Shown in pieces: positions 9,798 through 61,111 of a DNA stretch of 64,000 bases. The position numbers and the translations under genes were made by a program. The DNA is taken from the NCBI GenBank assembly GCA_017441565.1, contig JAFRXG010000033.1:9728-73727 (forward strand), in the 5' to 3' direction. Position 1 is the stretch's first letter, and every line of letters begins with the position of its first letter. Below the pieces are notes generated by a model. It saw only the letters and a program-made list of their open reading frames with translations. It ran no database searches and was not told the DNA's origin. The stretch is from Bacteroidales bacterium. Its GTDB lineage: Bacteria > Bacteroidota > Bacteroidia > Bacteroidales > P3.

Positions 9798-9874
9798 GGG
9801 CATACTCCCGTGTACGCCCATATCCGGGCAGAAGTACGCCCATACCCGGGCAGACACGGGAGTCTGCCCCTACC
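9793..9874. repeat. long imperfect hairpin (20-nt arms, 1 mismatch) enclosing a 21-nt direct repeat; possible terminator or REP-like element
   Basis: The arm ggtaggggcatactcccgtg (9793-9812) pairs with cacgggagtctgcccctacc (9855-9874). The loop contains gtacgcccatatccgggcaga and gtacgcccatacccgggcaga. Confidence 0.55.
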
Positions 9875-10013
9875 GATAAGACTCTATATAACAGCACAAT
9901 CATTCGGCCGACACCATGGGCGGGCCGCCCGTACCTTCAGTTACTGACATACGAGGTGGAAAAAAGGGGGTATTTTTTCACAAATTAGGTGCTGATATGT
10001 CGAAAAAAATTCG

Positions 10014-11994: not shown

Positions 11995-12054
11995 CCCCTC
12001 TAGCCTTACTAGCAGAACTAGTATTACTAGTAAGACTAGACAAATAATATCATT

Positions 12055-16284: not shown

Positions 16285-16319
16285 CAGTTTGAAAGAAGAA
16301 AACAGTACATTGAAATAAA

Positions 16320-16691
16320 CGGCAACTGACTCTATCGCTGGCAATGCCCTTGCGGGTATTGCGAGAGGAAAGTCCGGGCAACACGAGCCACCATACTTCC
16401 TAACGGGAAGGCGGCAGGAAGGCAAGCGTCCTGCCGACAGCAAGTGCCACAGAAAGACAAACCGCCTACGGGCAAGGGTGCAAGCGCGAGGTAAGAGCTC
16501 ACGACGGGCATCAGCAATGGTGCCCGATGGCAAACCTTATGGGTTGAAAGACCAAATATACCGACAGTTGTAGGGCCGGCTCGCCTGATGTCGGGGGGTA
16601 GGTTGATAGAGGCCGGCGGTGACGCCGGCAGTAGATTAATGATAGAGACTGCCGCATGCGGCAGAACAGAACCCGGCTTATGAGGTTGCCG
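16320..16691 (+). ncRNA. rnpB: RNase P RNA, bacterial type A
   Basis: Universal motifs GAGGAAAGTCCGGGC (16364-) and ACAGAACCCGGCTTA (16666-) are present. P1 pairs cggcaac (16320-) with gttgccg (-16691) and is followed by a T-run. The ORFs drawn across this region are spurious. Confidence 0.9.
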
Positions 16692-16727
16692 TTTTTTTTT
16701 TATGAACATTAAACGAGACACTCCCAA

Positions 16728-24425: not shown

Positions 24426-24526
24426 GGAATAGTCCAGTGGACTATTCCGATAGCGTTAACGGAGAAACAACCCTCGCGGTTGTAGGCTGCCTCAAAGCAG
24501 CCTTCCGCCGATTCGAACACGGCGGA
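24426..24526. other. four consecutive stem-loops (candidate structured RNA or operator array)
   Basis: 24426-24448 is a perfect 10-bp stem ggaatagtcc/ggactattcc with a 3-nt loop. 24467-24483 is acaacc/ggttgt, 24484-24503 is aggctgc/gcagcct, and 24504-24526 is tccgccg/cggcgga. Confidence 0.45.
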
Positions 24527-24735
24527 AAGCGAGCGTCCAAGAATTTACTCTTGAGACCGAGCCAAAGCCGTGTCTGCCTAAGCAAACACGGCGGAGGGCG
24601 AGCGTCCGAGAATTTACTCTTGAGACCGAGCCAAAGCCGCGTCTGCCTAAGCAAACACGGCGGAGGGCGAGCGTCCGAGAATTTACTCTTGAGACCGAGC
24701 CAAAGCCGCGTCAGCGTCAGCTAACACGGCGGAAA
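24516..24735. repeat. 69-bp tandem repeat, about 3.2 copies
   Basis: Units start at 24516, 24585 and 24654, with a partial unit at 24723. The unit is aacacggcggagggcgagcgtccgagaatttactcttgagaccgagccaaagccgcgtctgcctaagca, and copies differ at only a few positions. Confidence 0.9.
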
Positions 24736-25947: not shown

Positions 25948-26043
25948 AGTATAAGGATTAAGAACTATAAATTAAGAGCTAAGAACTAATCAGCCGACAG
26001 GGTTCTGTCACACTTCTTAGCCCTTAGCTCTTACTTCTTATCG
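25948..26043. repeat. intergenic inverted repeat (intercistronic hairpin)
   Basis: taagagctaagaa pairs with ttcttagcccttagctctta. It lies between the MFS stop and the AKR start and is built from short ttcttag/ctcttac words. Confidence 0.5.
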
Positions 26044-30079: not shown

Positions 30080-31198
30080 CTACTGCGCAGCTCTTTCAAC
30101 CGGGTTGGCATAGAGGGTGAGAAACTGCTGACGCAGTGTTTCCATACCGATGCCGTCAACCGCAGGCATTTGCGACATATGGTCGATGAAAGCCTCTTTT
30201 TGAAGAGACGTATAGTGGCCCGCATAACGCATGCCCCCATGCAGCAGGTCATACGCCACATAGTTGGTGGGCATCAAGTGGTAGCCATCACTGATGCGGC
30301 TGGTGAGCAACTGGGCCAGCTGCTCTGCCAATGCGCTGCCTCCATCGGGCAGGGAACGTAGATCGTCGGCATCGATAGGTTTGTTAAACGAAATGTATAC
30401 CTGCCCCTTGGGCGAACGGATGCCGGTGAGGATGCTCACCAGGTCCTCGCCCATTTGCTTGGTGTAGCTGCCCTGCTGACGCGTCAGGCAGACCTCGCGC
30501 ACCTTAAGGAAATCGCAGGGTTCCCACTCGTAGGATATTGTAACGGGCACGATACGCAGCGAGCTGTAGGTCTCGGCTGTAGGTCTTGAATCGTAGAGGC
30601 CTAGCATCTTGACCAACGCCACCTCGGTCTGGTCGTTGCCGTCCTTAGTACGACCGTTGCGTTGGGCTATCCACACCGACTCATGCCTATCAGCCAGCAC
30701 ATGCCTCATATACAGCGACACATGGCGGAGGTTGGTGTAGAACTCTTTGGGGCTGCCTCCCCGCTCCACCTTGAACATACGGTTACACCTGCCAATGTCC
30801 GTCACCACAGGATGGCTCATCAGGTTAGCCCCAAAGGTAATCTGAATCGGAGGGAAGCTGTGAAGATACATCACATATACCAACAGATTGGCATCCAACA
30901 CTATGTCGCGGTGGTTCGACACAAAGAGATAGTTCTGTCCAGGGGCAAGTTGCTCCACCCCTGAATAAGTGAACTGGGTTATCGTTGTGTCTATGACATG
31001 TTTGATAAGGTCATACATGATAGTGCTCTGCAGCTGTTCGATGGTCTTGATAGCCACGAAGTTTCCCTTCACCTGTTCCAATGGGGTTGAGGGGTAGAGA
31101 TAGGCTGCCACACTCTCAAACTCGGGGCTGCGGGCGATGCGTTGGAGTGCCTCACGCATCTCGCTGTCGTCATAGGGCCTTATATCGTCGAAATTCAT
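30080..31198 (-). CDS. PlsC/LPLAT-superfamily acyltransferase
   Basis: 372 aa with FVSNHRDIVLDANL (H..D block) and AQRNGRTKDG (motif-III-like). It is the last minus-strand gene after the ligase. Confidence 0.55.
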   Translation of the reverse strand: MNFDDIRPYDDSEMREALQRIARSPEFESVAAYLYPSTPLEQVKGNFVAIKTIEQLQSTIMYDLIKHVIDTTITQFTYSGVEQLAPGQNYLFVSNHRDIVLDANLLVYVMYLHSFPPIQITFGANLMSHPVVTDIGRCNRMFKVERGGSPKEFYTNLRHVSLYMRHVLADRHESVWIAQRNGRTKDGNDQTEVALVKMLGLYDSRPTAETYSSLRIVPVTISYEWEPCDFLKVREVCLTRQQGSYTKQMGEDLVSILTGIRSPKGQVYISFNKPIDADDLRSLPDGGSALAEQLAQLLTSRISDGYHLMPTNYVAYDLLHGGMRYAGHYTSLQKEAFIDHMSQMPAVDGIGMETLRQQFLTLYANPVERAAQ

Positions 31199-31287: not shown

Positions 31288-32583
31288 CTAAGAGCGCAGG
31301 TCGATAAACTTGACCGGTTTGCGGCTCTTGGGAGGGAATACTATCTGCCTGATTTGTTCCGATGGGAGCACCTCAATCTCTGGAGCCACCCTGATGCGTG
31401 AGCGGAAACTATCCTTGAGAGTCTTCACCACATCAAAATCAGGGGTGTGTTCCAGTGCTATCTTCACCACCACGTCGTCGGTTCCTGCATCGTTGGTCCT
31501 CACCTCCACAACATAGTTCTCCACATAGTCGGTATTGTCCAACACATCGTTAATGGCTGGCGGATAGAGTGTGGTGCCCTTCAACTTAATCATATTGTTC
31601 TTACGGCCCAGCAGCGGTGTGAGGCGGTAGGAGTTGCGACCGCAGGGGCATTGCTCCACCCGCTTGGCAGCAATGTCACCCGTGCGGAATCTCAGCAGCG
31701 GCATACCCTCAACCCCCAACGTGGTCACCACCACTTCGCCCGACTCCCCGTCGGCCACCGGCAGGTCGTCGTCGCCTATTATCTCCACTATAATTAACTC
31801 CGGGTGTACATGGCCGCCCATGCCGTAGGGGCATTCCGAGAACGTAGCCCCCATCTCGGTCGACGAATAGGTGGCAAACAGCTGCACGTCCCATTTCTCT
31901 TTGATGCGGCGACCTAGGAGGTTGAGACTGAAATCCTGCTCGCGCAGCCCTTCTCCGATGCCTATGATGCGGCGTATGCTGCTGTTGCGATAATCTATCT
32001 GGTGCGCTTCGGCATACTGGACCAGTTTCAATATAAACGAAGGCACACACATAATCGTGTCGGGCTGAAGACGGCGTATCGTGTCCCACTGCAATTCGGG
32101 GATGCCGTTACCCACACGTATCACCGATGCCCCCAACTCGCGCAGACCGAGGAAGTACGCAAGCCCCGCCATAAAACGTTTGTCGAGCGTCGTCATCAGT
32201 TGCACGATGTCGCCAGGTCTCACACCGGCACAGGCAAAAGACTTCTTTTCATTATACGCCAGCCGCTGGAGATCTTTCTCCGTGCAGCCGAAGGTCACTG
32301 GGTCGCCCAGCGTGCCCGACGTGGTAATGTAGTCGATGATGCGCTCACGCGGGCAGCAGCGGAAGTCGTCGTTAAACAGCTGTAGGTCCTTCTTCTCAGT
32401 GAATGGGATGCGCGTAAGGTCTTCGAGGTACTTGATTTTATGTATATCAATTCCATAGCTGGAAAACATGCGCCGATAGTAAGGCGAATGAGCCTCCAAG
32501 TAGGCCAACGCATCGGCCAGCTTCGCCTCCTGAAAGCGTTTGATTTGTTCGGGGGACTGGTATTCTATGTCTGAATTCATCAT
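31288..32583 (-). CDS. phenylacetate-CoA ligase / F390-synthetase family adenylating enzyme
   Basis: 431 aa with TSGTLGDP (the AMP-binding P-loop analogue), YSSTEMG and FRTGD. Confidence 0.8.
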   Translation of the reverse strand: MMNSDIEYQSPEQIKRFQEAKLADALAYLEAHSPYYRRMFSSYGIDIHKIKYLEDLTRIPFTEKKDLQLFNDDFRCCPRERIIDYITTSGTLGDPVTFGCTEKDLQRLAYNEKKSFACAGVRPGDIVQLMTTLDKRFMAGLAYFLGLRELGASVIRVGNGIPELQWDTIRRLQPDTIMCVPSFILKLVQYAEAHQIDYRNSSIRRIIGIGEGLREQDFSLNLLGRRIKEKWDVQLFATYSSTEMGATFSECPYGMGGHVHPELIIVEIIGDDDLPVADGESGEVVVTTLGVEGMPLLRFRTGDIAAKRVEQCPCGRNSYRLTPLLGRKNNMIKLKGTTLYPPAINDVLDNTDYVENYVVEVRTNDAGTDDVVVKIALEHTPDFDVVKTLKDSFRSRIRVAPEIEVLPSEQIRQIVFPPKSRKPVKFIDLRS

Positions 32584-32586
32584 AAT

Positions 32587-32760
32587 TTGATTGTTTGATT
32601 GTTTGATTGCTTGAATAATTGGTTAGAGGTTAGAGGGGGCGGCAGCAAATTCTCAATTCTCAATTCATAAGGCGGCAGCAAATTCTCAATTCTCAATTCA
32701 TAAGGGGCGGCAGCACTCAAGCATTAACACAATCAAGCAATCAAGCAATATCTTTTATTT
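32587..32760. repeat. composite intergenic repeat, copy A (contains a 33-bp tandem duplication and TIR-like arms)
   Basis: Colinear with 35363..35515, sharing gattgcttgaataattggttag...ggcggcagcaaattctcaattctcaatt...cagcactcaagcatta.cacaatcaagcaatca..caatatcttttattt. The internal 33-nt unit ggcggcagcaaattctcaattctcaattcataa occurs at 32638 and 32671. Confidence 0.85.
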
Positions 32761-32821
32761 TTAGTAGTTAGTAACGCATAAACACATTCTTTATTATAGA
32801 CTCAAAAAAATAAATAGGGGG

Positions 32822-33667
32822 TTACCATAACTGACCCAGCCATCGAAGGAACTCGTATTTCCACCCCCGCGATTCGGGGGTGCCGTACACGTCGCTCACT
32901 CCAAAACCATGACGGCCGTGCCTATACTGCAGAAAACGGTGGCTGATGCCCTTGGCAGCCAGTGTGTCGGCCAGCATCTGGGCGTTGTGATAATCCACTA
33001 TGGGATCGTCGACACAGTTCACCAAAAATATCGGCGGGACATCCTGCGGCACCTGACGTTCTATTGAGAGCTGTTCGCGCAAATCCTTGTCATACTGGCC
33101 CCATTCACCCATCAGCCCCCTGCGCGAACGCTTGTGGACATACTCTCCCGTCATAGTCACCACCGGATATATTGCGGCCACGAAAGCCGGTCTCTGCCCC
33201 GTGGTGGTCACAGCCTGGCCTAGCACCAGATGTCCGCCAGCCGAAAAACCCATCATTCCTATACGGGCGGTGTCTATGCCATACTCTGCCGCATGGTCTG
33301 CCACCCAGCGCAACGCCTTCTGACCATCGTCATACATATCGGGGTGGCGCACTCCCCTGCACACGAGGCGGTAATGGGTGTACCACGCCCACCATCCCGG
33401 CACTCGGTACTTGAGCACAAAGGCCGATACCCCATGACTTTGAAGCCACTGGGCCACCTCTATGCCCTCGCCCATATAGTCAAGCCAGAAGTAGCTGCCC
33501 CCCGGACACACCACTACTGCTGTCCGCGACCCCTCGGTCACGTACGGTGTGATGGTCACCTTGCTGGCTGCCCCCTCAGCCTCCGGCCATAGGGGGAACG
33601 CCTGTTGTCCTTGAAGCGGCTGACCAACCAGCCAGACCAAAAGCACACAAAGCAGACTCCGCCTCAT
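32822..33667 (-). CDS. secreted alpha/beta-hydrolase (esterase/lipase fold)
   Basis: 281 aa with signal peptide MRRSLLCVLLVWLVGQPLQGQ, the nucleophile elbow GFSAGGH, and a late D and H (DDPIV, HGFG). Confidence 0.8.
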   Translation of the reverse strand: MRRSLLCVLLVWLVGQPLQGQQAFPLWPEAEGAASKVTITPYVTEGSRTAVVVCPGGSYFWLDYMGEGIEVAQWLQSHGVSAFVLKYRVPGWWAWYTHYRLVCRGVRHPDMYDDGQKALRWVADHAAEYGIDTARIGMMGFSAGGHLVLGQAVTTTGQRPAFVAAIYPVVTMTGEYVHKRSRRGLMGEWGQYDKDLREQLSIERQVPQDVPPIFLVNCVDDPIVDYHNAQMLADTLAAKGISHRFLQYRHGRHGFGVSDVYGTPESRGWKYEFLRWLGQLW

Positions 33668-34029
33668 TGTCCACCAAGTATTTTCGCCACCTCGTCGCGT
33701 TCCAGACGGCGGTAGGCGGGCGGGTGTCCCTCATCGAAAGTCACCTCGAAATACTCCTCGTCGTAGAACGACAATTTGGAATTGGTGTCGGGATTACACT
33801 CCCAATAAACAATCTGGTTCACGTCCAGATGTTTCTGTTCGCAAATCTGCTCTGCCAACGAGCGCCCAGCATAGGTAACCGAGGTACCTGGGTTGTCCTG
33901 ATACAGCTCTGTCACTATGACATAGGTCCTGCCGTCAGCCTCCCTAATCTTCAGTCCGCAGGTCGAGGGCATGTCCCACTGTCCGCGGAAAGGGAATATC
34001 TCGTCGTAGTAAGTCTCTGATACTTTCAT
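33664..34029 (-). CDS. hypothetical 121-aa protein, translationally coupled on both sides
   Basis: ATGA overlaps at both ends (34026-34029 and 33664-33667). No motif was recognised. Confidence 0.6.
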   Translation of the reverse strand: MKVSETYYDEIFPFRGQWDMPSTCGLKIREADGRTYVIVTELYQDNPGTSVTYAGRSLAEQICEQKHLDVNQIVYWECNPDTNSKLSFYDEEYFEVTFDEGHPPAYRRLERDEVAKILGGQ

Positions 34030-35315
34030 TTCTTGGCAATATTACGTACATCATCCTTTCCAAACGACTTGTTGGCCAGTGCGCGATTGCGTGGGCGGTA
34101 GGTGCCGTCTTCCATCTCGCGGGCCACCACGTTGTAAAAAAGCTTGAACATCTTCTGCTCCTGGCTCTCGGTCGCATAGAAGCTCCTCCACGCATAGTCA
34201 TACAAATCCTGCAACCGTTCGGGCGACATATGCTGGGGCTGGAACACCACCTGACCAGCATTGTAGTGGTCCCAGTCGAAATCGAAAATGCGTCCCTGCC
34301 GCAGCAGGTCGTCATAGGCCTTTGTATGAGGGAACGGGGTGAGCACGGTGAACTCCGCCAAGTCCAGGTCTATCTCGCCCAAGAAGTCGATGAGCCGCTT
34401 GCAGTCATCCTCCGTCTGGTTGTCCAATCCCAGCAGGATGGTGCCTTCCACCCCGATGCCGTAGTCGTGATAGCGTTTCACACGTTCTTTGATATAGTCC
34501 GACGTGTCGTACACAGCCTGGTAGACATACCATGCTCCTGCCTTAGAGGCAAGGTCCAGCACCACAGGGTCGTCCTCTATCGTGTGGCTAATCCATTTTT
34601 TCTTCAGGGGGGCAATAGCTTTGAACAGTTCCATCTCCCACTCCTTATTCTGGGCGAGCGAGTTGTCGACGATAAAGAGGCGGTTGTTGTCGATGGCTGC
34701 CATATCCTCCACCACCTTGTCGATGGGGCGTGGGCGGAACTTGCGACCGCCGAGATAGGAGACGGCACACGGGTAGCAGCTGAAACGGCAGCCGCGCGAA
34801 GCATGGAAGAGGTCTACCATCTGAACGCCCTTGTGGTTATAGAGGTGGCGTTTGTAGAGATCGCGTCTGCAGGGCCCCACGGTTTCGATGGGCGGCATCT
34901 GACCCATGTAGTTATACACTTTCTTGAGGTGTCCGCATCGCCAGTCTTCGAAAACCTGTTCCTGTCGCCCCTCCGACTCCCCGAGGAACACCGAATCCAC
35001 ATGTTGCACCATCTCTTCAGCATGGAGCATGGTGGAGATGCCGCCGGCCATTACCTGCTTGCCTCTGCGATGGTATTCGTCGGCTATGGCCCAACCGCGC
35101 TTCACCTGCGTGCTCAGCATCATCGAGAGTGCCACCACGTCGCAGTCGTCGTCAAAGTCTATCTCCTCCACATTTTCATCCACAAATGAGACCTCCACAT
35201 AGTCTGGCAGCGTGGCAGCAAACGCCACCGGCCCATGAGGGGGCAGGTTGAAGGTGGTCTGCCCACGCAACTTCTGCCATCGGGGGTAAATGAGTTTTAA
35301 TTTTATTCTGTCCAT
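34026..35315 (-). CDS. B12-binding-domain radical SAM protein (class B)
   Basis: 429 aa with an N-terminal Rossmann-like B12 domain (DVVALSMMLST..., MAGGI) and the CxxxCxxC cluster CRFSCYPC. Confidence 0.85.
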   Translation of the reverse strand: MDRIKLKLIYPRWQKLRGQTTFNLPPHGPVAFAATLPDYVEVSFVDENVEEIDFDDDCDVVALSMMLSTQVKRGWAIADEYHRRGKQVMAGGISTMLHAEEMVQHVDSVFLGESEGRQEQVFEDWRCGHLKKVYNYMGQMPPIETVGPCRRDLYKRHLYNHKGVQMVDLFHASRGCRFSCYPCAVSYLGGRKFRPRPIDKVVEDMAAIDNNRLFIVDNSLAQNKEWEMELFKAIAPLKKKWISHTIEDDPVVLDLASKAGAWYVYQAVYDTSDYIKERVKRYHDYGIGVEGTILLGLDNQTEDDCKRLIDFLGEIDLDLAEFTVLTPFPHTKAYDDLLRQGRIFDFDWDHYNAGQVVFQPQHMSPERLQDLYDYAWRSFYATESQEQKMFKLFYNVVAREMEDGTYRPRNRALANKSFGKDDVRNIAKK

Positions 35316-35362
35316 ATTCTTGAATGTTTGAATGCTTGATTGTTTGATTGTTTGAGTAACTA

Positions 35363-35515
35363 TTGATTGCTTGATTGTTTGATTGCTTGAATAATTGGTT
35401 AGGGGTTAGAGGTTAAAGGGGGCGGCAGCAAATTCTCAATTCTCAATTCTCAATTCATAAGGCGTCAGCACTCAAGCATTAGCACAATCAAGCAATCAAA
35501 CAATATCTTTTATTT
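35363..35515. repeat. composite intergenic repeat, copy B
   Basis: See copy A. It has 3 rather than 2 copies of ctcaatt and no 33-bp duplication. Its last 17 nt are the final codons (...IKDIV) of 35496..38522. Confidence 0.85.
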
Positions 35516-38500
35516 CCCTTCGCAACGTGCTGTCGCCTAGCAGGGCTTCGGCGGTGGCTATGGCGGTGACGGCCACACCGCACATGCCGTGCAGGTTCAC
35601 GTCCTGCCCTGTGAGGAAGAGGTTGCGCACTTTGGTACGCACTGCGAGCTGCGTCTGCATCATGTTGTTGCAGTCTTTATGGAGACCATACATGCCGCAG
35701 TGCCGGTTGCCCAGATAGTCGCGGATGGTCAGCGGCGATGAGGCCTCTACCCCTTCGACATGGCTGCGCAGGCCTGGCATCAGCACTTCCAGCAGCATCA
35801 GCACCCGGTCGACACACGCCTGCTTCCACTTCAGATAGGCTTCGCCCCTGTGTCCTATGGTGGTCGCTTCCCACTGGGCCACCCATTCGTATGTCATCGG
35901 GCATATCACGGTCATTGACTGTGCAAACGCTGGCTCCTGCTGCGAGGCCTGCATCAGGACCATGGCGCAGCGGGGCCATACATCCTCAGATGCCGCAGCA
36001 CAGTCCCACACCGCCCTATTGTCAGCGGCATAGTACAGCGGGCTGGGCCGGTGGGGCTGCGAGGAGGGTTTGAAACGCACGTATAGCTTAAAGGCCGAAT
36101 AGCTGTCGGGAGCTTCCTCCAACCGCTGACGATATGAGCGTGGGAAGGCATTCGGTGGCGACAGGGCAAGGAGGGTGTGAATTGGCAGGTCGCTCACATA
36201 GTTATCGGCCCGGTAGGTCCTTCCGGCCGACGTAAGCACATGGCCGATACGGTGGTCCTCCACCGTGAAACCCGTCACTGCCTCGTTCACCCGTATGGTG
36301 CCGCCACCGTCGCATATCATACGTGCCAGCACCTCTGCCATCTGGCTGCTCCTCTCGGCGAACTGCGCAGTCCCCTCAATATGCAATATGTTGACCAACG
36401 CATGGACATAAGCGGGCGTTTCGTCCCACACGCCCCCATATAGGGGAGCCAGATAGGATAACGCCGCCCGCAGGTCGGCATCGGATATGTAATGTTCGAT
36501 GAATCTGCCCACCGGCCACAAAAATTCCTCACTGTGGCTCAGTGGCGTATGCTCCTCGTCGCGCAAATAGAAGAGGTCTTCCTCCTGTGACAGCCTGTAT
36601 AGTGCGTCCACATAACGGCGTATGCCGTCGGCCTCATGCGGGAAGAGGTGGCTGAAATAGTCTACAAAGGCCTCACGGCCACGTGGTATGCAATAATGAA
36701 CGCCCGTAGGCGACACCACCACCTCGTCTACGCTGCCCTCGCCCGACAGGCGGAGGTCCAGCTGTCCCATGACACCCAGATAGGAACATATCCGTTCCAT
36801 CAGTCCGCCCTTCTGAAAGCCACCAAACACGTGCATTCCCGTTGCGAAACTGATGCCGCCACGCGTAAACGAACAGAGCCCGCCGCCCACTGCGTGGTGG
36901 CGTTCCAGCAGGGTCACGCGCTGCCCCTTCTTCGTCAGCAGGGCACCAACCAGCAGTCCGCCCAGTCCTCCGCCCATCACCAAAGTGGTGGGCCCGGTAG
37001 GCTGCTCATGCCTACCCACTGCCACCATCTGCCGTGTCACCGCCTCATCGCCCAAGATATGGCTACACACCTTCAGCACCCCCACCAGCACTCCCAACAT
37101 ACCGTGGGCATTGATATTCTGTCCCACCAGCAGCACATTGGGTATCTTGGTGCGGTAGTCCACCCGGCCAGCCAACCCTTTCCTCACGTCCCTTTCCAGT
37201 CCGTACATCGACCCATCGGGGGTCAGCGTATAATCACGATAGGTGAGCGGGGTGGCGGTATAATAGCTTGCTATATGACTGCCGATGCCGGGGAAGTCCT
37301 TTTCCAACGCAGCCAGCAGCCTCATCGCCTTGCGCTGTTTGAAATCCTCATAGCTGCTGCCGCGCCTGCCTGTAAGCGTGTCGTGCCACTGGGCCAGTTC
37401 GCTAGCGGACATATATGCGAGCACCACACCGCTGTCGGCCCACTGGGGATGGGGCTGATGGCAATGGTGCATATACAGATAGCCCCTCGGCCAGTCCTCT
37501 TCGGTGTACGATGCCATCTCCCACGGCGACGCACAGGCAAAGCCGTAATAGTTATGGTTCATATACGGCATGCTCTGAGGCTTGAACTTGACAAACAGCG
37601 AGAAGGCCGACGTGGTGTTTGTCATCGTGCCGATGCGCGAATGGTACACAGGGCGCAGCTCATGTTCCTCAAACCAGTCCTTCAGCTGGCTGGGATGCAC
37701 GTCGCTCACCACCACATCAGCGGGCAGCATAGTGCCGTTTTCCAGCACCACACCTTGCGCGCGTCCCCCCGAGCAGCGGACCTTCACCACACGGCTGTTC
37801 GTACGCACCGTACCCCCAGCACCGCACAGCACTTCCACCAGTGCGTCCGCTATCGTCTCGCTGCCTCCCACAATCCTGAATGCGCTGTTGTTGTAAAAAT
37901 TGGCTATGAAGGCGCAGGTGGAGAAGGGTGTCACCCCGCGCCGCGCGGCATACAACGATATGTTGCCCATCAGCACCTCTCGCAGCAGCGGGTCGCCGAT
38001 GACGGATTCCAGCACTTCGTCCACAGGTGTAGAAAACAGGCGGTACGACGGGAAATCGCCTGCCTTTGTCCGCACCTCGTCGTGGCCGTCGGGCAGACGG
38101 TAGTAGGGCGACGACTGCGCCACGCTGTCCGCCAGCTGCCAGAAGAGCCACAGCCCCTCGCGCTCATGGGGGAAACGCTCCGCCAGTGCCTCCACCATCG
38201 GCTCGTGCCCGTTGGCAAAGGCAAAACGCTCGCCTTGGAGGCCCACCACGTCATATCCCTTGGTGTCCAACCGGTCGAAGGTCAGCCGTCCTCCGATTCC
38301 AAAATAGTTGAGGTAATGCCTCAACACCTGTCCTTCGTCGAGGCTGCCCACAAAATGCATGCCCGTCTCGAACCGTGACCCCTCGCGGCTGAAGCACTGC
38401 AGACATCCACCCACACGGTGCGACTGCTCCACCACCGTCACCTCATAGCCCTCGCGGGCCAGCACGGCGGCGGTGGCCAAGCCGCCCAGTCCGCTGCCTA

Positions 38501-38522
38501 TCACCACACACCGGCTCTTCAT
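35496..38522 (-). CDS. tandem fusion of two phytoene-desaturase-family (CrtI/CrtD-like) FAD-dependent oxidoreductase modules
   Basis: Two dinucleotide-binding motifs, VVIGSGLGGLATA...VEQ...GG near the N-terminus and LVMGGGLGGLLVG...LER...GG near residue 525. Each is followed by about 480 aa of colinear sequence. The start is placed at the ATG at 38522 (MKSRC), which forms an ATGA overlap with the upstream stop. Confidence 0.75.
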   Translation of the reverse strand: MKSRCVVIGSGLGGLATAAVLAREGYEVTVVEQSHRVGGCLQCFSREGSRFETGMHFVGSLDEGQVLRHYLNYFGIGGRLTFDRLDTKGYDVVGLQGERFAFANGHEPMVEALAERFPHEREGLWLFWQLADSVAQSSPYYRLPDGHDEVRTKAGDFPSYRLFSTPVDEVLESVIGDPLLREVLMGNISLYAARRGVTPFSTCAFIANFYNNSAFRIVGGSETIADALVEVLCGAGGTVRTNSRVVKVRCSGGRAQGVVLENGTMLPADVVVSDVHPSQLKDWFEEHELRPVYHSRIGTMTNTTSAFSLFVKFKPQSMPYMNHNYYGFACASPWEMASYTEEDWPRGYLYMHHCHQPHPQWADSGVVLAYMSASELAQWHDTLTGRRGSSYEDFKQRKAMRLLAALEKDFPGIGSHIASYYTATPLTYRDYTLTPDGSMYGLERDVRKGLAGRVDYRTKIPNVLLVGQNINAHGMLGVLVGVLKVCSHILGDEAVTRQMVAVGRHEQPTGPTTLVMGGGLGGLLVGALLTKKGQRVTLLERHHAVGGGLCSFTRGGISFATGMHVFGGFQKGGLMERICSYLGVMGQLDLRLSGEGSVDEVVVSPTGVHYCIPRGREAFVDYFSHLFPHEADGIRRYVDALYRLSQEEDLFYLRDEEHTPLSHSEEFLWPVGRFIEHYISDADLRAALSYLAPLYGGVWDETPAYVHALVNILHIEGTAQFAERSSQMAEVLARMICDGGGTIRVNEAVTGFTVEDHRIGHVLTSAGRTYRADNYVSDLPIHTLLALSPPNAFPRSYRQRLEEAPDSYSAFKLYVRFKPSSQPHRPSPLYYAADNRAVWDCAAASEDVWPRCAMVLMQASQQEPAFAQSMTVICPMTYEWVAQWEATTIGHRGEAYLKWKQACVDRVLMLLEVLMPGLRSHVEGVEASSPLTIRDYLGNRHCGMYGLHKDCNNMMQTQLAVRTKVRNLFLTGQDVNLHGMCGVAVTAIATAEALLGDSTLRREIKDIV

Positions 38523-41500
38523 ACCGCCCCTCCTTCCTCGTCGGCAGCCGACGGACAATAAAAGTGCAAATTATCTGGCAGCAGGGCGCAATGAGAGGCC
38601 ACCCTGTAGTCATCTTCCGAATCAATGCGGCACCTATACTCCCTGTCAGGATGTGCCAAGGCGGCCAGCAGTGCCAGCTCGCCCTGCTGCGAATAGGCTG
38701 GCAGCCGCAGTTCCCGCCATTCCTTACCTTCAAGGACCGTCAAATCCTCCGTCATGGGTGCGGCACCCTCGCTCTGCCACCGGCGCAATGTCCTGCGGCA
38801 GCGCGCCGACACCTCACGCCCCTTATACAAATATTGATAGCGCACCATTGGCAGCCAATAGGCCTCGTCCTCCAGCTCTCTGCGCAGTGCGGCATAACGG
38901 TCGGTGAAATAGTGCCGCATCTGCCTCGTAAGCTGCTGCAGGTCGGCGTCGGCAAAGCTCTCATAACTGATACGCTGCTCCACATATATGGTCGTGGACC
39001 CCTCGCTGAGCAGCCAGTCTTTCTTGGGCATCACATGCTGCACCCCGTGTACCAGCACAGGCAGCACATCCAGCTGCAGCTGCTGCGCCAAGTAGAACGC
39101 CCCCTTATGGAAACGTCCCACCGTGCCGTCGGTCGAGCGGGTGCCTTCCGGAAACACCAGCACCGAGTAGCCCTCGCCCACCAACTCGCGCAGGCGGGGC
39201 AGCAGTGCCTCATAGCCCTCGGTCACAGGCAGGTAGTCGGCATAGCGTATCACCACACCGTAGATGGGGTTGCGCCACACCCAGTCGTTGGTCAGCACCA
39301 CCAGTTTGGGAGTCAGCATCAGGGTGCACAGCAGGTCGAGGTGCGACTGGTGGTTGGCCACCACCACCGCCGGCCGGTCAAACGTCTCATGACAGGGATT
39401 CACAACCTTGTGGCGAACCCCCGGCAGGAGCCTGAGACCCTGACGGCAACACCAACAAATCAGCTTATGGAAGCGCAGCCGCCAGCGACGGCTCTTCCCT
39501 CCTACCAGTCGGAATAGCAGGGTCAGCGGCGTGGCTACCAACATGGCCACCACCACCAGCACCACCACTGCCCATAATGTGTTCAACAGCCGTTTCAGCG
39601 TCACCGGCACCCGGCGGAGCTCGCCGCCAGCGCGCGTCATCCACCCCATCAGCACCGGGGGCAGCAGACACGCCATCACTATCACCACCGCCATACCCAT
39701 CACCGCCACCACCGCCAGCGACTTCAACGCCGGATGCTGGGCGAAGAGCAGCACCCCCATACCGGCAAACATCAGCAACGCCGACACCACCACGCTATGG
39801 CGGTAGCTGCGCAGCCGCTGACGGCCGTAGGCATACTCATACATAAGCCCCTCGGTGATAAAGATGCTGTAATCGTCGCCCTGTCCGAAGATGAACGTCG
39901 CCAAGATGATATTCACGATGTTGAAGCTCACTCCTGCCAAATCCATCAGCCCCAAAATCCACAGCCAGCCCACTGCCAATGGCAGGAACGACACCAGTGC
40001 CAGCTCCAGCTGGCCCAGCGACAGCCAGAGGAACACAAACACCACCAGCCCGCAAACAAACAGAATATAGTTGAAGTCACCGTTCAATGCGGCAACCAGA
40101 TGCGACCCCACATCGTGCAAGTCGAAGGCAAACAGACCCGCATCGCCCTCCCAACGCTCCCGAAGCGTCTGCTTCACCTGCTCCGCCTCCGCCACAGGCA
40201 CATGCAGCATGTTCACCACCCTCACGCTGGTGTCGTCGGTCAAGAGATAGTTCTCCGCCAGGCCGCAGAGGCAGGTCATAGCCTCAGGCGGCATCACCTG
40301 GTAGGTGTTTGTCAGCTCGGCTACGAAAGGCTCGAAAGCCCCTGGCGCGAATCCCTGACGTGCTGCCGCCCGCTGCACCTCGGCCTCCAAACCGCCATGC
40401 CGTCGGCGGAACAAGTCCCAACGTTCCAACGCCTCCTGCTGACGGTGGGTGGAGGGAAGCAGCAGCGAGGCGCCCCTCGACTCCTCCATCACCCCTTCAC
40501 CGCCGTGCCGCTCGCAAGCCTGCAAGGCCTCGTCCAAGGTGGGGGCCTCCGACACCCAATAGACCACGTCGGTCGAATCGCCATTGGCAAGCGGACGGCT
40601 AAGCAGGGCCAGGTCGTCACGCTGCTGGGCTGTCATATAGTTGATGTTGTGCAAGTCGTCGTCGAACCGGGTATTACCGCTTCGCAGCCCCAAAAACAGC
40701 GTCAGCACCGCCACCACGACCAGCAGCACCTTTTTGAACGACGGTTGCAAAGAAACCAACAGAGGATGTTGTGTAAACCTATTATTGTGCGAATCGGACA
40801 CCCCCGACAAGGCGCGTCTGAGCCTGAACCCATTCGCAACCCTCCCATCCTTCGCCTTCCCGGTCGAAGCGATAAGGGGCAGGATGGTGAGTACGACAAG
40901 GATGGTGCCCACCAGCATCAGCGCACCGAACAGCCCCAGGTCGCGCATGGCCTCCGCCTTTACAAACAGCAGGCAGGCAAAGGCACTCACCGTGGTGATG
41001 TTGCCCGTAAGCAGTGGCTCGACCATCTCCTTAAGCGTAAGCCGTCGGTCGGGGTGGGAGCGCAGATGCTCCAGATAGTGCAGCGGATAGTTCACCGCTA
41101 TACCTAACAAGACCGACCCGATGCCAATAACTATAATAGAAATTGATGGGCGCAGCAGCGACACCACCCCTAAGGCAAAAAGCCAGCCCGCCGCCACGGC
41201 AAAGGCCAGATACAATATGTTGCGTCGGTCACCCATGGCCCATGCCAATATGACCACAATCAGCACCAACGCCACCAGGCCGCCCAAAAGGCTGTCCTTC
41301 TTGATACGCTCGGCATTGGCAGCCGCAATCAGCGGAGCCCCCACCGCGGACACCCTCACCCCCTGCACCTGCTTCATCACGCTGTCGGCCACCTGACTCA
41401 GCCGTGCGGACAGACGGCTGCCCGCACGCGTGTCGCTCGACGCGTAAGGCGACAGCATAAAGGCGTATGCCCTTCCCTCGCGGTCGAAGAGGTAGCCGTC

Positions 41501-42109
41501 GCGAACCTCGTAAAAGTCGGCTGGCGACAACGACTGGAGCCTTTGCAGCACTGGCGAGAAGAGGTTCAGCGGATCGGCCCGCACCGCCTCCGTAGCCAAT
41601 GCCGTCATGGGGAACGAGAGCATCCTGCGCACATGGGTCATACAAGTGTCGACATAGCCCGGCTGTGCCAGCAGAGAGTCGATACGCTCATAGTCCGCCT
41701 CGGTAAGGAACAACGCCACATGATGGCGCATAAAGTCCATCGCCTCCATCAGCTGCCCTTCGTCGGCAGTCCCTTGCCACCGACCCAGTTCCTCACCACC
41801 CAACTCTTCCCAACCGAAGCCGAAAGCATCCACCGCCTCGGCCAGCAGGGAGTCGGACACCTCACGGTCCAGCCCCTCCTCGGGACGGAAGATGATGGTG
41901 ATGCGGCCCGCGTCGCCCATCTGCTCGTAGACCGACGCATAGCGCGCGTCCGCCCCGCTGCGCGGGAGGAAGTCGGCCACATCCTCGCCGAAATGCAGCC
42001 TGAGCCCTAACAGCACACAGCCCACCAGCACCAAGGCAGTCAGCCATAAGGCCATCCGCCTATGCTTCATCAGGAAGTCGTGCAATCGTAATATAAACCT
42101 CGTTACCAT
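38519..42109 (-). CDS. fusion protein: MMPL/RND-like predicted exporter + LPLAT acyltransferase + ~120-aa C-terminal extension
   Basis: 1196 aa. The first ~850 aa have two clusters of TM helices with large loops, as in an APE-type predicted exporter. An acyltransferase domain follows with VVVANHQSHLDLL (HX4D) and VFPEGTRS. Confidence 0.75.
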   Translation of the reverse strand: MVTRFILRLHDFLMKHRRMALWLTALVLVGCVLLGLRLHFGEDVADFLPRSGADARYASVYEQMGDAGRITIIFRPEEGLDREVSDSLLAEAVDAFGFGWEELGGEELGRWQGTADEGQLMEAMDFMRHHVALFLTEADYERIDSLLAQPGYVDTCMTHVRRMLSFPMTALATEAVRADPLNLFSPVLQRLQSLSPADFYEVRDGYLFDREGRAYAFMLSPYASSDTRAGSRLSARLSQVADSVMKQVQGVRVSAVGAPLIAAANAERIKKDSLLGGLVALVLIVVILAWAMGDRRNILYLAFAVAAGWLFALGVVSLLRPSISIIVIGIGSVLLGIAVNYPLHYLEHLRSHPDRRLTLKEMVEPLLTGNITTVSAFACLLFVKAEAMRDLGLFGALMLVGTILVVLTILPLIASTGKAKDGRVANGFRLRRALSGVSDSHNNRFTQHPLLVSLQPSFKKVLLVVVAVLTLFLGLRSGNTRFDDDLHNINYMTAQQRDDLALLSRPLANGDSTDVVYWVSEAPTLDEALQACERHGGEGVMEESRGASLLLPSTHRQQEALERWDLFRRRHGGLEAEVQRAAARQGFAPGAFEPFVAELTNTYQVMPPEAMTCLCGLAENYLLTDDTSVRVVNMLHVPVAEAEQVKQTLRERWEGDAGLFAFDLHDVGSHLVAALNGDFNYILFVCGLVVFVFLWLSLGQLELALVSFLPLAVGWLWILGLMDLAGVSFNIVNIILATFIFGQGDDYSIFITEGLMYEYAYGRQRLRSYRHSVVVSALLMFAGMGVLLFAQHPALKSLAVVAVMGMAVVIVMACLLPPVLMGWMTRAGGELRRVPVTLKRLLNTLWAVVVLVVVAMLVATPLTLLFRLVGGKSRRWRLRFHKLICWCCRQGLRLLPGVRHKVVNPCHETFDRPAVVVANHQSHLDLLCTLMLTPKLVVLTNDWVWRNPIYGVVIRYADYLPVTEGYEALLPRLRELVGEGYSVLVFPEGTRSTDGTVGRFHKGAFYLAQQLQLDVLPVLVHGVQHVMPKKDWLLSEGSTTIYVEQRISYESFADADLQQLTRQMRHYFTDRYAALRRELEDEAYWLPMVRYQYLYKGREVSARCRRTLRRWQSEGAAPMTEDLTVLEGKEWRELRLPAYSQQGELALLAALAHPDREYRCRIDSEDDYRVASHCALLPDNLHFYCPSAADEEGGAV

Positions 42110-50392: not shown

Positions 50393-50638
50393 TTATTTGG
50401 TGGTTTTTGACTCGATATAGTCGCAGAATTGGCTGAAGAGCTTCACGTTGGTGAGTTCCTCGGGCTTGATTTTAAAGCCGAACTTGCGCTCGACGATGAC
50501 TACGATGTCGACGAAGTCGAGACTGTCAATACCGATGTCTTCTTTGAGGCGGGCTTCGGGGGTGATTTTTTGAGGGTCTATTTCTAAATCTTCTACTAGG
50601 AAGTCGATAATCTGTTGTTCTAGTTCTTGACGGGTCAT
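50393..50638 (-). CDS. acyl carrier protein
   Basis: Start taken at MTRQELEQQ (ATG at 50636-50638), with IGIDSLDFVD. The longer ORF to 50737 runs through the repeat element. Confidence 0.85.
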   Translation of the reverse strand: MTRQELEQQIIDFLVEDLEIDPQKITPEARLKEDIGIDSLDFVDIVVIVERKFGFKIKPEELTNVKLFSQFCDYIESKTTK

Positions 50639-50758
50639 ATTGATTGTGTTAATGCTTGAATGCTTGAATATGTTAATGCTTGAATGTGTTAATGCTTGAG
50701 TGGCTGGCGCGGTCATATTACTCAGACAATCAAGCAATCAGACAACCAGGCATTTTTC
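50639..50758. repeat. intergenic repeat related to copies A and B (partly inverted), with 3x tgttaatgcttga
   Basis: 50686-50702 gtgttaatgcttgagtg is the exact reverse complement of 32714-32730. 50726-50740 acaatcaagcaatca is an exact direct match to 32729-32743. Confidence 0.65.
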
Positions 50759-51859
50759 TTACTTCTTACTTCTTACCTCCATGATGCAGTGGCCGTGGCC
50801 GAGGTTGTCGACGATGCGTTCTACTCTGAGGCCGGCGGCAGCGATGAGGCGTTCCATGTCGGGGGTGTTGTACATGCGGCTGTTGCCGTTGGCGATGGCG
50901 GTGAAGTAGAGGCTTGTCATGGTGAGGCACAGGGAGGCGACGGGGAACCGCTGGCGGTCCCAAAGGGTCTCCATGATGAGCAGCCGGCTGTGGCTGTCCA
51001 TGACGGCGGCGGCACGAGAGAGGATGCTCACTATCTGCTCTTCGCCGAAACAGTCGAGAAACTGGCTCATCCAGATGACATCAAAGTGGCAGTGGGTGGG
51101 AAAGGGCGAAGCGGGGTCGAGAAGGTTCATGGGATGCCCCTGGATGCGGTCGGCACCGGGATGGCCGGAGACGTTCTGCCGCATGAGCTGCAACTGCTGG
51201 GGGAGGTCGATGATGGTGACCTGCACCTGCGGGTCGTGCGCCACGCACTGCAGGGCCCATCGGCCAGTGTTGCCGCCTACGTCGAGGAGAGTGGCGACGG
51301 GCTCTCGGAAGACCACCTCCAAGGCCTGGGGGAAGGAGTGGTCGGAATAGAAGTGGTCGAAGCCGAACCAGCTGCGCTGCACCTGCGGCGGGAGGCTGGA
51401 GAGGGCCTCGTAGACCGTGGGCCAGGGACCGAAATGCTCAAGCCCGACGGGACGGCCTTCGTCAAGTGACTCTTCCAAACGAAACCAGCCTTCGTAGTTG
51501 ACGTCGTGGTTGAAGTCCATATTGACTTTGACCAGAGGGTCGGCGAGCAGCATCCAGCCGGTCTTGGCGAGCAGGTAGTGCTGCTGGTCGGCGGCCAGGA
51601 TGACGGTGCCGATGGTGAGGGAGGCTTCGAGCAACACCTGTATGGCGTAGCGGCTCTTGCCGGTACGCTCGACGAGCTGCTCGAGGGTGAGGCCTCCGTC
51701 GCTGTCGCGCAGCATGTCCAGAATGCCCCATTTGACCATGATGCGCGAGGCCTGGAAGATGACCGGGCCGAAGGCTATCCACTCAGCCATCTGCTGAGCT
51801 TCACGGGCGGAGAGGGGGTCGTTTAAATATGCCTTTTCTAATGCTGGTGAGAGGTTCAT
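50759..51859 (-). CDS. class I SAM-dependent O-methyltransferase (COMT-like with N-terminal winged-helix dimerisation domain)
   Basis: LLDVGGNTGRWA (motif I) and VIWMSQFLDCF. Confidence 0.8.
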   Translation of the reverse strand: MNLSPALEKAYLNDPLSAREAQQMAEWIAFGPVIFQASRIMVKWGILDMLRDSDGGLTLEQLVERTGKSRYAIQVLLEASLTIGTVILAADQQHYLLAKTGWMLLADPLVKVNMDFNHDVNYEGWFRLEESLDEGRPVGLEHFGPWPTVYEALSSLPPQVQRSWFGFDHFYSDHSFPQALEVVFREPVATLLDVGGNTGRWALQCVAHDPQVQVTIIDLPQQLQLMRQNVSGHPGADRIQGHPMNLLDPASPFPTHCHFDVIWMSQFLDCFGEEQIVSILSRAAAVMDSHSRLLIMETLWDRQRFPVASLCLTMTSLYFTAIANGNSRMYNTPDMERLIAAAGLRVERIVDNLGHGHCIMEVRSKK

Positions 51860-61050: not shown

Positions 61051-61088
61051 TTCTAGGCTATTCTAGGCTATCCTAGGCTATCCTAGGA
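61051..61088. repeat. 10-bp tandem repeat t[t/c]ctaggcta, about 3.7 copies
   Basis: ttctaggcta ttctaggcta tcctaggcta tcctagga, located between the nadE stop and the helicase start. Confidence 0.8.
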
Positions 61089-61111
61089 GGGCCTAGAGAA
61101 AATAAACATTC

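Follow-up and report, generated by a model that had tools for sequence, protein, structure and literature searches.

Direct repeats bracketing three genes of a Bacteroidales flexirubin-type operon probably belong to a dispersed family of modular intergenic hairpins

Introduction

BOX elements of Streptococcus pneumoniae are modular intergenic repeats of the form boxA-(boxB)n-boxC, built from modules of 40-60 nt; they have a predicted stable secondary structure and no transposase of their own, and their copies gain and lose modules. Cyanobacterial short tandemly repeated repetitive (STRR) sequences are tandem repeats of heptamers. To our knowledge, dispersed palindromic repeats have been well studied in Proteobacteria and pneumococci and hardly in Bacteroidota. 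The repetitive extragenic palindromes (REPs) of Proteobacteria are small, 20-40 bp long, and carry at one end a tag, GTAG or CGTC, that stays unpaired; they lie downstream of genes, in tandem and convergent spacers, and are rare between divergent open reading frames (ORFs) (PMC3733652). BrickBuilt, a MITE (miniature inverted-repeat transposable element) from Porphyromonas gingivalis, has an internal 23-nt repeat unit, lies 49-591 nt from genes and contains promoters (PMC4596501). Stop-bearing TAACTGA heptamers form intergenic direct repeats, among other hosts in a few Bacteroidetes, many of them a few nucleotides before start codons, and translational control has been proposed for them (PMC4679880). 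Here we describe two copies of a composite palindromic repeat, A and B, which bracket three genes inside a flexirubin-type aryl-polyene operon of a Bacteroidales bacterium. Both lie in a stretch of 64,000 nt (contig JAFRXG010000033.1, positions 9,728 to 73,727), which is called the window throughout.

The three genes encode a B12-binding radical SAM enzyme, a 121-aa protein and an alpha/beta hydrolase, and are referred to below as the trio. We argue that A and B are probably composite members of a high-copy family of intergenic palindromic repeats present in rumen Bacteroidales and Prevotella. The bracketing of the trio is a by-product of which operon junctions were colonised.

Results

Two copies of a composite repeat at two operon junctions

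The genes between about 30 and 56 kb of the window are all encoded on the minus strand and form the flexirubin-type cluster. The two copies and the genes around them are as follows.

32584..32760, no strand assigned: copy A, composite hairpin element filling the spacer from the hydrolase to the FlxY ligase
32637..32715, no strand assigned: 33-nt tandem duplication in copy A (GGGCGGCAGCAAATTCTCAATTCTCAATTCATAA, 2.3 copies; Tandem Repeats Finder (TRF) score 142)
35363..35515, no strand assigned: copy B, the same composite as A, in the spacer from CrtI to the radical SAM gene
35319..35360, no strand assigned: extra half-arm adjoining copy B (TTGAATGTTTGAATGCTTGATTGTTTGATTGTTTGAGTAACT; profile match E 1.4e-4)
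31288..32583, minus strand: FlxY, flexirubin-biosynthesis acyl-CoA ligase (431 aa; NF053551, 700 bits against a cut-off of 520)
32822..33667, minus strand: alpha/beta hydrolase (281 aa; BD-FAE or acetyl-esterase-like; hydrophobic N-terminus)
33664..34029, minus strand: 121-aa protein (no Pfam or NCBIfam family; 1484 homologues)
34026..35315, minus strand: B12-binding radical SAM enzyme (429 aa; first gene of the trio; position kept in all relatives)
35496..38522, minus strand: fused double CrtI-like FAD oxidoreductase (1008 aa in public assemblies; C-terminus ..REIKDIV* inside copy B)

An earlier, sequence-only reading of the window had judged the two copies by eye to be colinear and nearly identical. 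Formal global alignment agrees: A (32587-32760) and B (35363-35515) are colinear direct repeats with 141 of 146 aligned bases identical (96.6%), five substitutions and 35 gap columns distributed over three indels. The alignment score of 236 stands far above that of shuffled sequences (-39 +/- 11, maximum 0; n=300). A 22-nt core, GGCGGCAGCAAATTCTCAATTC, for which no occurrence is expected by chance, has its sole sites in the 64 kb at 32638, 32671 and 35421, two of them in copy A and one in copy B. Evidently, as that reading proposed, the copies are related by duplication of junction sequence and do not resemble each other by chance. The ORFs likewise bear out that the copies flank exactly the trio 34026..35315 / 33664..34029 / 32822..33667, whose genes overlap by ATGA at both internal junctions. 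TRF confirms the internal 33-nt duplication and a difference in heptamer number (AATTCTC units, 2.7 against 3.7 in A and B), in keeping with a slippage-prone sequence.

Read in operon sense, that is along the minus strand, copy A opens with an A-rich tail, AAATAAAAGAT, and an arm, (TTGCTTGA)n..GCTTGAGT. The core GCTGCCGCC follows, then (GAGAATT)2 with the duplicated 33-nt unit, (CCTCTAA)2 and a final arm, (CAATCAAA)3, which ends 3 nt upstream of the ligase ATG. The inverted arms of each copy measure 28-33 nt, are 82-89% complementary and fold into a long stem on either strand (fold z about -3 to -3.6). The arm of copy B encodes the final two codons of the CrtI fusion together with its TGA stop (...LRREIKDIV*). 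As the sequence-only reading had stated, B forms the end of this gene and its string recurs in copy A in a non-coding context. The half-arm at 35319..35360 extends to about 3 nt before the radical SAM ATG. Copy A lacks an equivalent of this half-arm, which in the minimum-energy fold is paired with the far arm.

Besides the window, two independent public assemblies, L002 (ERZ28019165) and L021 (ERZ28654026), contain identical A and B; the pair is therefore no assembly artefact. Many public short-read contigs break within the segment shared by A and B, which is expected behaviour because it is a repeat.

Three short Logan contigs (L006:1-50, L025:1982-2128 and L026:1969-2115) carry A-site sequence with B-type features, either CTAACCCCTAACC or three GAGAATT units, and stop right there. 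These mixed forms could be slippage or single-nucleotide polymorphism (SNP) variants, gene-conversion products or A/B recombinants.

A dispersed family of intergenic hairpins

When metagenome contigs were searched with 23 nt of the arm, 39 exact matches were obtained in about 30 unrelated contexts, none of them the flexirubin locus. A profile built from 16 members and scanned over the 264 kb of fetched sequence marked 65 distinct places, with up to five within a single 13-kb locus. The 45 unique hairpins have a median length of 84 nt, a median minimum free energy of -32.5 kcal/mol and a median z of -5.8. The repeats constitute a dispersed, structured family associated with the 3' ends of genes.

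In a typical member the arms are tandem 8-mers, (TTGATTGY)n and (CAATCAAR)n, that enclose a GC-rich tip, GACYGCGYCAGCC, which on the opposite strand reads GCTGRCGC. The full arrangement runs (TTGATTGY)3-5-TTGAGT, a loop that is short or reads TTTGACYGCGYCAGCC, and then ACTCAAGCATTAACACAATCAAGCATTCAAGCAAT. Profile matches in the window are restricted to 32583-32751, 35319-35505 and 50640-50754, the last of which is a canonical member in another spacer of the same operon.

50640..50754, minus strand: third family member, canonical, in the spacer from the O-methyltransferase to the acyl carrier protein (ACP) gene (profile E 2.5e-25)
50759..51859, minus strand: O-methyltransferase (C-terminus ..EVRSKK* encoded by the micro-repeat (GTAAGAA)3, which lies just upstream of the third hairpin)
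50393..50638, minus strand: ACP-like ORF (81 aa from ATG; directly downstream of the third hairpin), called from a DSLD motif read in the translation, with no family search behind the call

The third member consists of (TGATTGY)n-TGAGT, the loop AATATGACCGCGCCAGCC and then ACTCAAGCATTAACAC, and ends 1 nt before the ACP ATG. Compared with it, A and B have canonical arms and a loop expanded by two modules, (GGTTAGA)2-3 and GGCGGCAGC-(AATTCTC)n-ATAA. Among the 82 loci fetched, this composite interior is confined to the locus of the window species. Single occurrences of the core module (GAGAATT)n-TGCTGCCGCC come from three other Prevotella/Bacteroidales metagenome-assembled genomes (MAGs) and from one Lewinellaceae MAG; a genome scan with the core 20-mer gave at most one match per genome, three of them apparently due to chance, in coding DNA, and the locus of the source species was not recovered by it. 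The sequence-only reading had reasoned that an element widespread in intergenic spacers would make the flanking of the trio coincidental. This applies to the arms (39 matches, 65 places) and not to the composite, which is known from one locus of 82. Many family members sit within an outer palindrome, (GAAARTT)n...(AAYTTTC)n, which makes modular assembly the norm.

Neither this hairpin type nor a second one, described below, has a copy in viral contigs. Rfam 15 yields no match at the gathering threshold or at E <= 1 in 32500-35600, and only a chance-level snoRNA match near 50778. No covariation signal was seen in the hairpin, the 3' arm of which had been fixed by the search pattern. We found no description of the repeat family in the searchable literature.

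Placement at gene ends

Genes are called to either side of 31 unique hairpins; of these, 14 occupy convergent and 17 tandem spacers (in either orientation), and none is located between divergent genes. The probability of finding no divergent case is about 1e-4 by our own calculation, which assumes a 25% prior for divergent spacers. Gene ends lie a median of 13-15 nt from the stem, with the stop codon often inside the arm; for gene starts the median is 42-55 nt. All three elements of the window end 1-3 nt before the next ATG, and copy B, in common with many members, holds the stop codon of the upstream gene in its arm. Three successive TTGATTGY units place a TGA in all three reading frames, and the complementary CAATCAAR strand contains neither a stop codon nor an ATG.

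A T-rich tail (at least five T in the eight nucleotides downstream) is present in 16 of 46 family members, and T-tailed members, for example in L036, L040 and L045, resemble a terminator followed by a Bacteroidetes promoter. On the sense strand the window elements are followed by ATTATG (A), GAATATG (B) and TATG (third copy), none of which has a T-run. As there is no U-tract in the sense direction, full termination would not be expected from the window hairpins. A scan for terminators and for the sigma-70 consensus found nothing above shuffles at the spacers, and no convincing Bacteroidetes TAnnTTTG promoter was recognized by eye inside A or B.

Every module encountered (TTGATTGY, GAGAATT, CCTCTAA, GTAAGAA and GTGTTAAC/GTGTGAAT; for example at 32587-32610) is a 7- or 8-mer containing TGA or TAA. 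The all-frame stop arising from three units was computed for TTGATTGY and seen by inspection for the other modules. At 50756-50776, (GTAAGAA)n encodes the end of the O-methyltransferase, ..EVRSKK*, and similar EVR(S/E)K tails end the CrtI protein in L079 (2341-2385) and in L001 and L074 (L001:7050-7100). In L009, whose protein of about 120 aa is 84% identical to that of the window, the spacer from CrtI to the radical SAM gene (L009:1355-1470) is yet another hairpin, with heptamer arms of the GGTTAGGG/CCCTAACC type around GCGGCAGCC, and the CrtI tail, ..KGLGISG*, is likewise written by the repeat. Intergenic micro-repeats thus write the last residues and the stop codons of unrelated proteins.

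The trio is ancestral operon content

We compared eight other operon lineages (L001, L009, L010-13, L066-67, L068-70, L071-73, L074-78 and L079-81), in which the protein of about 120 aa is 75-97% identical to that of the window or the DNA is 83-99.6% identical. As far as the contigs extend, the order CrtI, radical SAM enzyme, protein of about 120 aa, hydrolase, ligase, acyltransferase is kept in all eight. In most of them the junctions overlap or are very short and hold no element. The CrtI and radical SAM genes of L010-13 and L068-70 overlap, and their hydrolase and ligase genes are separated by 2 nt, with no element; the corresponding gaps of L079-81 measure 66 nt and 27-34 nt and contain no hairpin; the longer gaps of L066 and L071 are plain AT-rich sequence.

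The sequence-only reading had derived the present arrangement from an ancestral CrtI/element/ligase junction into which the trio was inserted. Because the trio occupies the same place in lineages devoid of the element, this cassette-insertion model fails. Nor did a search reveal the empty site that the model predicts, with CrtI followed by one element and the ligase. Adjacency of CrtI and ligase, as an empty or a deletion form, was found in no contig, including those reached by exact-protein look-ups of the window's ligase, radical SAM enzyme, hydrolase and CrtI. Of the sites available for a comparison of filled and empty states, those without hairpins (L010, L068, L079) are, at 75-90% divergence, too different for a precise empty site to be aligned, and the close strain L001 shows replacement of the element, not its absence. 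Relatives carrying the same trio between unrelated flanks, which that reading had named as evidence against insertion, essentially do exist.

The 1484 homologues of the 121-aa protein make the trio a regular component of flexirubin-type clusters in Bacteroidales. Its GC content is similar to that of neighbouring genes. The trio is ancestral, fixed content of the operon, and it is the spacers that are the inserted parts; the radical SAM enzyme, the 121-aa protein and the hydrolase are core genes of these clusters and not accessory cargo.

Spacers are replaced as units between strains

Over 21 kb, strain L001 matches the window at 99.6% identity, and its copy A is identical. At site B, 171 nt are replaced in L001 by a 186-nt spacer of another kind (L001:7064-7249), which we call type 2. 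The type-2 hairpin has GTGTTAAC/GTGTGAAT arms around GTCGCTGACGC, and the exchange alters the CrtI tail of L001 to ...RRGIKEVREPKVANSSE*. SNPs between the window and L001 are evenly spread around site B, at about two per 500 nt. We considered an imported recombination tract around the B allele of L001; uniform SNP density, together with flanks that are not L074-like, rules this out.

In the sister species L074-78 (about 87-90% nucleotide identity), type-2 hairpins occupy both junctions flanking the trio, in one orientation. The next junction, from ligase to acyltransferase, holds two further type-2 hairpins in tandem and in the same orientation (L074:6318-6511, 194 nt), and the ligase is called seven codons longer (438 aa). 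As far as its contig extends, L008 has the A-site spacer of the L074 type. Type-2 hairpins also occur at unrelated loci, so they too are dispersed. Two species thus have the trio between direct repeats, but the repeats differ, so bracketing is a property of the junctions rather than of the genes. Spacer alleles turn over as whole units, and colonisation of the operon junctions is lineage-specific.

Discussion

Comparison with known systems

The family shares with REPs and bacterial interspersed mosaic elements (BIMEs) its high copy number, imperfect palindromes, intergenic position 3' of coding regions and absence from divergent spacers. It also shares with them clustering or nesting into larger structures, occurrence inside operons and plausible RNA stem-loops. 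Unlike REPs, members in the window family are about 84 nt long, their arms are tandem 7-8-mers of variable number and carry no tag, the host belongs to Bacteroidales, and the 64-kb window contains no REP-associated tyrosine transposase (RAYT). With BOX elements the family has in common a modular composite build, a variable number of internal subunits, a predicted stable fold, copies that vary through loss and gain of modules, and the lack of its own transposase; sequence and host are unrelated, however, and BOX modules of 40-60 nt contrast with the micro-repeats of 7-8 nt found here. We know of no stop-in-all-frames property in BOX elements.

BrickBuilt resembles our elements in its Bacteroidales host, intergenic and multicopy occurrence, small inverted-repeat ends and internal tandem array of varying repeat number, whereas the window elements lie directly against stop and start codons, their arms are long and paired, and no promoter was detected in them. 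The MITE-like character ascribed to the copies by the sequence-only reading stands as regards inverted arms (28-33 nt), size (elements of 150-200 nt, within the 50-500 bp of MITEs) and non-coding nature (no ORF), and does not stand as regards target-site duplication. No insertion sequence with TTGATTG-type ends is present in the window. Repeats of the TAACTGA and STRR kinds are likewise tandem heptamers with stop codons in intergenic DNA, but they are plain arrays of one heptamer with no paired arm, while different 7-8-mers make up palindromes in the window family. Finally, a stable hairpin right after the stop codon, with a T-rich run in about one third of the family, recalls intrinsic terminators, from which the window copies differ by the absence of a sense T-run, the immediately following start codon and far longer stems. 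Taken together, the family is REP/BIME-like in behaviour and BOX-like in modularity, and departs from REPs in size and tag and from MITEs in target-site duplication.

Origin of the two copies

We propose that hairpin elements filled junctions of an operon that is tightly packed in distant relatives, namely those from O-methyltransferase to ACP, from CrtI to the radical SAM gene and from hydrolase to FlxY ligase. At the latter two junctions the element has additional micro-repeat modules in its loop, (GGTTAGA)n and GGCGGCAGC-(AATTCTC)n, and this composite would have passed whole from one of these junctions to the other over 2.7 kb. Such copying most likely proceeded by ectopic gene conversion or template switching via short shared ends, which we infer to be AATAAAAGA on one side and CAATCAAACAATCAAG on the other.

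Evidence on the direction of copying exists on both sides, and neither direction is preferred. For B to A speaks the 11-mer AAATAAAAGAT beside the arm, native CrtI coding sequence at B and non-coding at A; the CrtI tails of L009, L001, L074 and L079 indicate that RR[EG]IK[DE] is ancestral. For A to B speak the type-2 B allele, which the sister species also has, and L079, where the short A spacer consists in essence of the (GAGAATT) module. Because the divergence between A and B is about ten times that between strains, copying probably predates the split of the window strain and L001, or the sequence came from an unsampled donor. A very recent conversion between A and B is unlikely, and a third, unsampled donor copy is possible.

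Weighing the alternatives

The sequence-only reading took the trio for a cassette that had entered the ancestral CrtI/element/ligase junction by recombination at the element and was excisable through the direct copies. Direct repeats of about 150 nt with 96.6% identity do bracket exactly three overlapping genes, copy A does carry AAATAAAAGAT, which forms native CrtI codons at copy B, and the Logan contigs L006 and L025/L026, with their mixed A/B features, could be recombinants. Against this, the trio holds the same position in all eight other lineages, including those with element-free, overlapping junctions, and CrtI-ligase adjacency is seen in no contig. The GC content of the trio is like that of its neighbours, and the sister species has the trio bracketed by an unrelated hairpin type that is present again at the next junction; in the hybrid contigs the difference comes down to one SNP or one heptamer unit, at which they end. 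We consider a cassette very improbable. Even more remote is an artefact in which a second copy arose from mis-joining of repeat-containing contigs: many short public contigs do break inside the element, but the window, L002 and L021 are three independent assemblies with the same A and B, distinct flanks and copy-specific differences, and the two copies are set apart by five substitutions and three indels.

A and B might instead be two independent insertions of a mobile MITE-like composite, served by a transposase located elsewhere and alike by descent from a common master copy. The family is dispersed and dense in some genomes, close strains have different element types at one site, the 3.4% divergence of A and B exceeds that of strains, and other Bacteroidota genomes have lone copies of the core module (GAGAATT)n-TGCTGCCGCC. 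The composite interior is nevertheless known from one locus of 82, with at most one core match per genome in the genome scan; there are neither target-site duplications nor a transposase in the 64 kb; and the match between A and B extends 11 nt past the arms into what is, at B, native CrtI coding sequence, which points to copying between these very sites. Independent insertion is therefore unlikely. A better, though still doubtful, alternative regards the hairpins as selected regulatory modules that set the relative expression of operon segments, the identity of A and B being functional convergence kept by conversion. Possible modes of action are RNase-resistant 3' stem-loops, partial attenuation, or sequestration of the following cistron's CA-rich leader until an upstream ribosome opens the stem. 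In favour of this are the window elements ending 1-3 nt before start codons with the upstream stop in the arm of B and of many members, the TGA in all frames given by three 8-mers and a complementary leader strand free of stop codons and ATG, the 98.9% identity of L001 and L074 spacers despite flanks of 83-97%, and the use of one hairpin type per genome across neighbouring junctions. Short direct repeats just before start codons, proposed as S1/Csp sites, provide a precedent (PMC4679880). On the other hand, the operon of distant relatives lacks the spacers, which means that the pathway can do without the elements; between co-directional genes the hairpins are found in either orientation; a T-rich tail is found in about one third of members only; and there is neither a covariation signal (the 3' arm being fixed by the search pattern) nor an Rfam family.

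We therefore favour membership of A and B in a dispersed repeat family, as stated at the outset, as the probable explanation, and several observations have to be set against it. Across the 64-kb window, ORFs of 150 aa or longer showed no transposase-like domain, RAYT included. Target-site duplications are lacking as well: across 43 hairpins, the direct repeats at stem ends do not exceed in length those of shuffled left/right pairings, the hairpin ends being fuzzy because the number of arm units varies. A terminal GTAG/CTAC or CGTC tag is absent from the 16-member consensus, CGTC appearing in some loop tips only. Copy counts of the family come from the 64-kb window and the fetched contigs, and all three window members fall within one operon, a clustering not predicted by random colonisation. 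The 3.4% difference between A and B, plus indels, is large beside the divergence of strains. The type-2 spacer of L001 is 98.9% identical to that of L074 (2108-2288), although the flanks are 83-97% identical and those of L001 are window-like to the very edge; this hints at selection on the spacer or at lateral exchange of the spacer alone, which a view of the repeats as neutral does not predict.

Possible function

By analogy with REPs and BIMEs, the hairpins on the polycistronic mRNA are probably stable stem-loops that punctuate the operon transcript. Their effect may be to shield 3' ends, to dampen read-through or to keep the next leader masked until the upstream ribosome unfolds the stem; just as well, they may be selfish DNA that is close to neutral. 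A wider and more tentative idea, which we regard as somewhat improbable, is that rumen Bacteroidales harbour a superfamily of modular hairpins, defined by stop-bearing micro-repeats of 7-8 nt, a conserved GCTGRCGC tip, a place at gene junctions and exchange of whole spacers, and serving as selected operon punctuation. Its members would be exchanged between neighbouring junctions, strains and possibly species, and would set segmental mRNA stability or couple translation across gaps of 150-240 nt.

Direct repeats around genes of a biosynthetic cluster do not mark a mobile cassette here, and the radical SAM enzyme, the 121-aa protein and the hydrolase should be treated as core members of flexirubin-type clusters. 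Members of the hairpin family are modular and densely distributed; they supply stop codons and even the C-terminal residues of proteins, cause short-read assemblies to break, and are exchanged between strains. In practice this matters for MAG quality (contig breaks and collapsed spacers), for gene calling at 3' ends and starts and for heterologous expression of operons. Bacteroidota are a phylum without Shine-Dalgarno-led initiation; should the hairpins regulate expression, they would offer a handle on post-transcriptional control there.

Operon genes and other repeats of the window

The operon contains genes for a tyrosine/aromatic ammonia-lyase (TAL), three ketosynthases (KS), a ketoreductase (KR), the O-methyltransferase, ACP, LolA, a GT2 glycosyltransferase, an MMPL-acyltransferase fusion and the double CrtI-like fusion, followed by the trio, the FlxY ligase and an acyltransferase. 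The last gene of the run is as follows.

30080..31198, minus strand: acyltransferase (372 aa), preceded by an ordinary junction of 89 nt

Pfam matches in the cluster comprise Lyase_aromatic, ketoacyl-synt (three times), adh_short, LolA, Lip_A_acyltrans and Amino_oxidase. The FlxY equivalog, together with TAL, KS, KR, ACP, LolA, acyltransferase and CrtI-like genes, identifies the cluster as flexirubin-type. The listed ORF of the CrtI fusion has a TTG start and reaches 38558. Gene fusions vary by lineage. The CrtI-like pair, fused in the window (1008 aa; 35496-38522), is split in L010 and L068 (498 + 512 aa), and MMPL, fused in the window to an acyltransferase (38519-42109, 1196 aa), stands at the far end of the operon in L010.

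The radical SAM gene has weak, sub-threshold matches to B12-dependent families that include HpnJ, HpnR and BchE, and the acetyl-esterase resemblance of the hydrolase likewise scores below family cut-offs. We found no literature combining flexirubin with radical SAM enzymes. The sequence-only reading had suggested a structural check of the 121-aa protein. AlphaFold2 gives a confident model of an alpha/beta domain (predicted local distance difference test 84, predicted template-modelling (TM) score 0.80), for which no structural neighbour was found in the PDB (best E 0.03, TM score <= 0.34). Residues W18, C24, C63 and C78 are invariant in the family.

By exact protein matches the window belongs to a rumen MAG of a Bacteroidales bacterium. 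The remainder of the window is ordinary chromosome, with gyrB, RNase P RNA, cargo proteins of the type IX secretion system and an extracytoplasmic function (ECF) sigma factor. Its sole Rfam family is the bacterial class A RNase P RNA at 16319-16696 (235.8 bits). Four other spacers of the window, at 25959-26040, 11999-12040, 61053-61096 and 9792-9875, contain hairpins with arms made of short tandem repeats of unrelated sequence; the arm units are TAAGAAC/CTAAG, an ACTAGT-based unit, CTAGGCTATC in 3.5 copies and a GC-rich 22-mer in two copies. Palindromes of micro-repeats look like a general habit of this genome. A 69-nt tandem repeat (24516-24733; 3.2 copies, 94% match) with no Rfam match lies in a non-coding gap of 680 nt and varies by strain, being one unit shorter in L002 than in the window.

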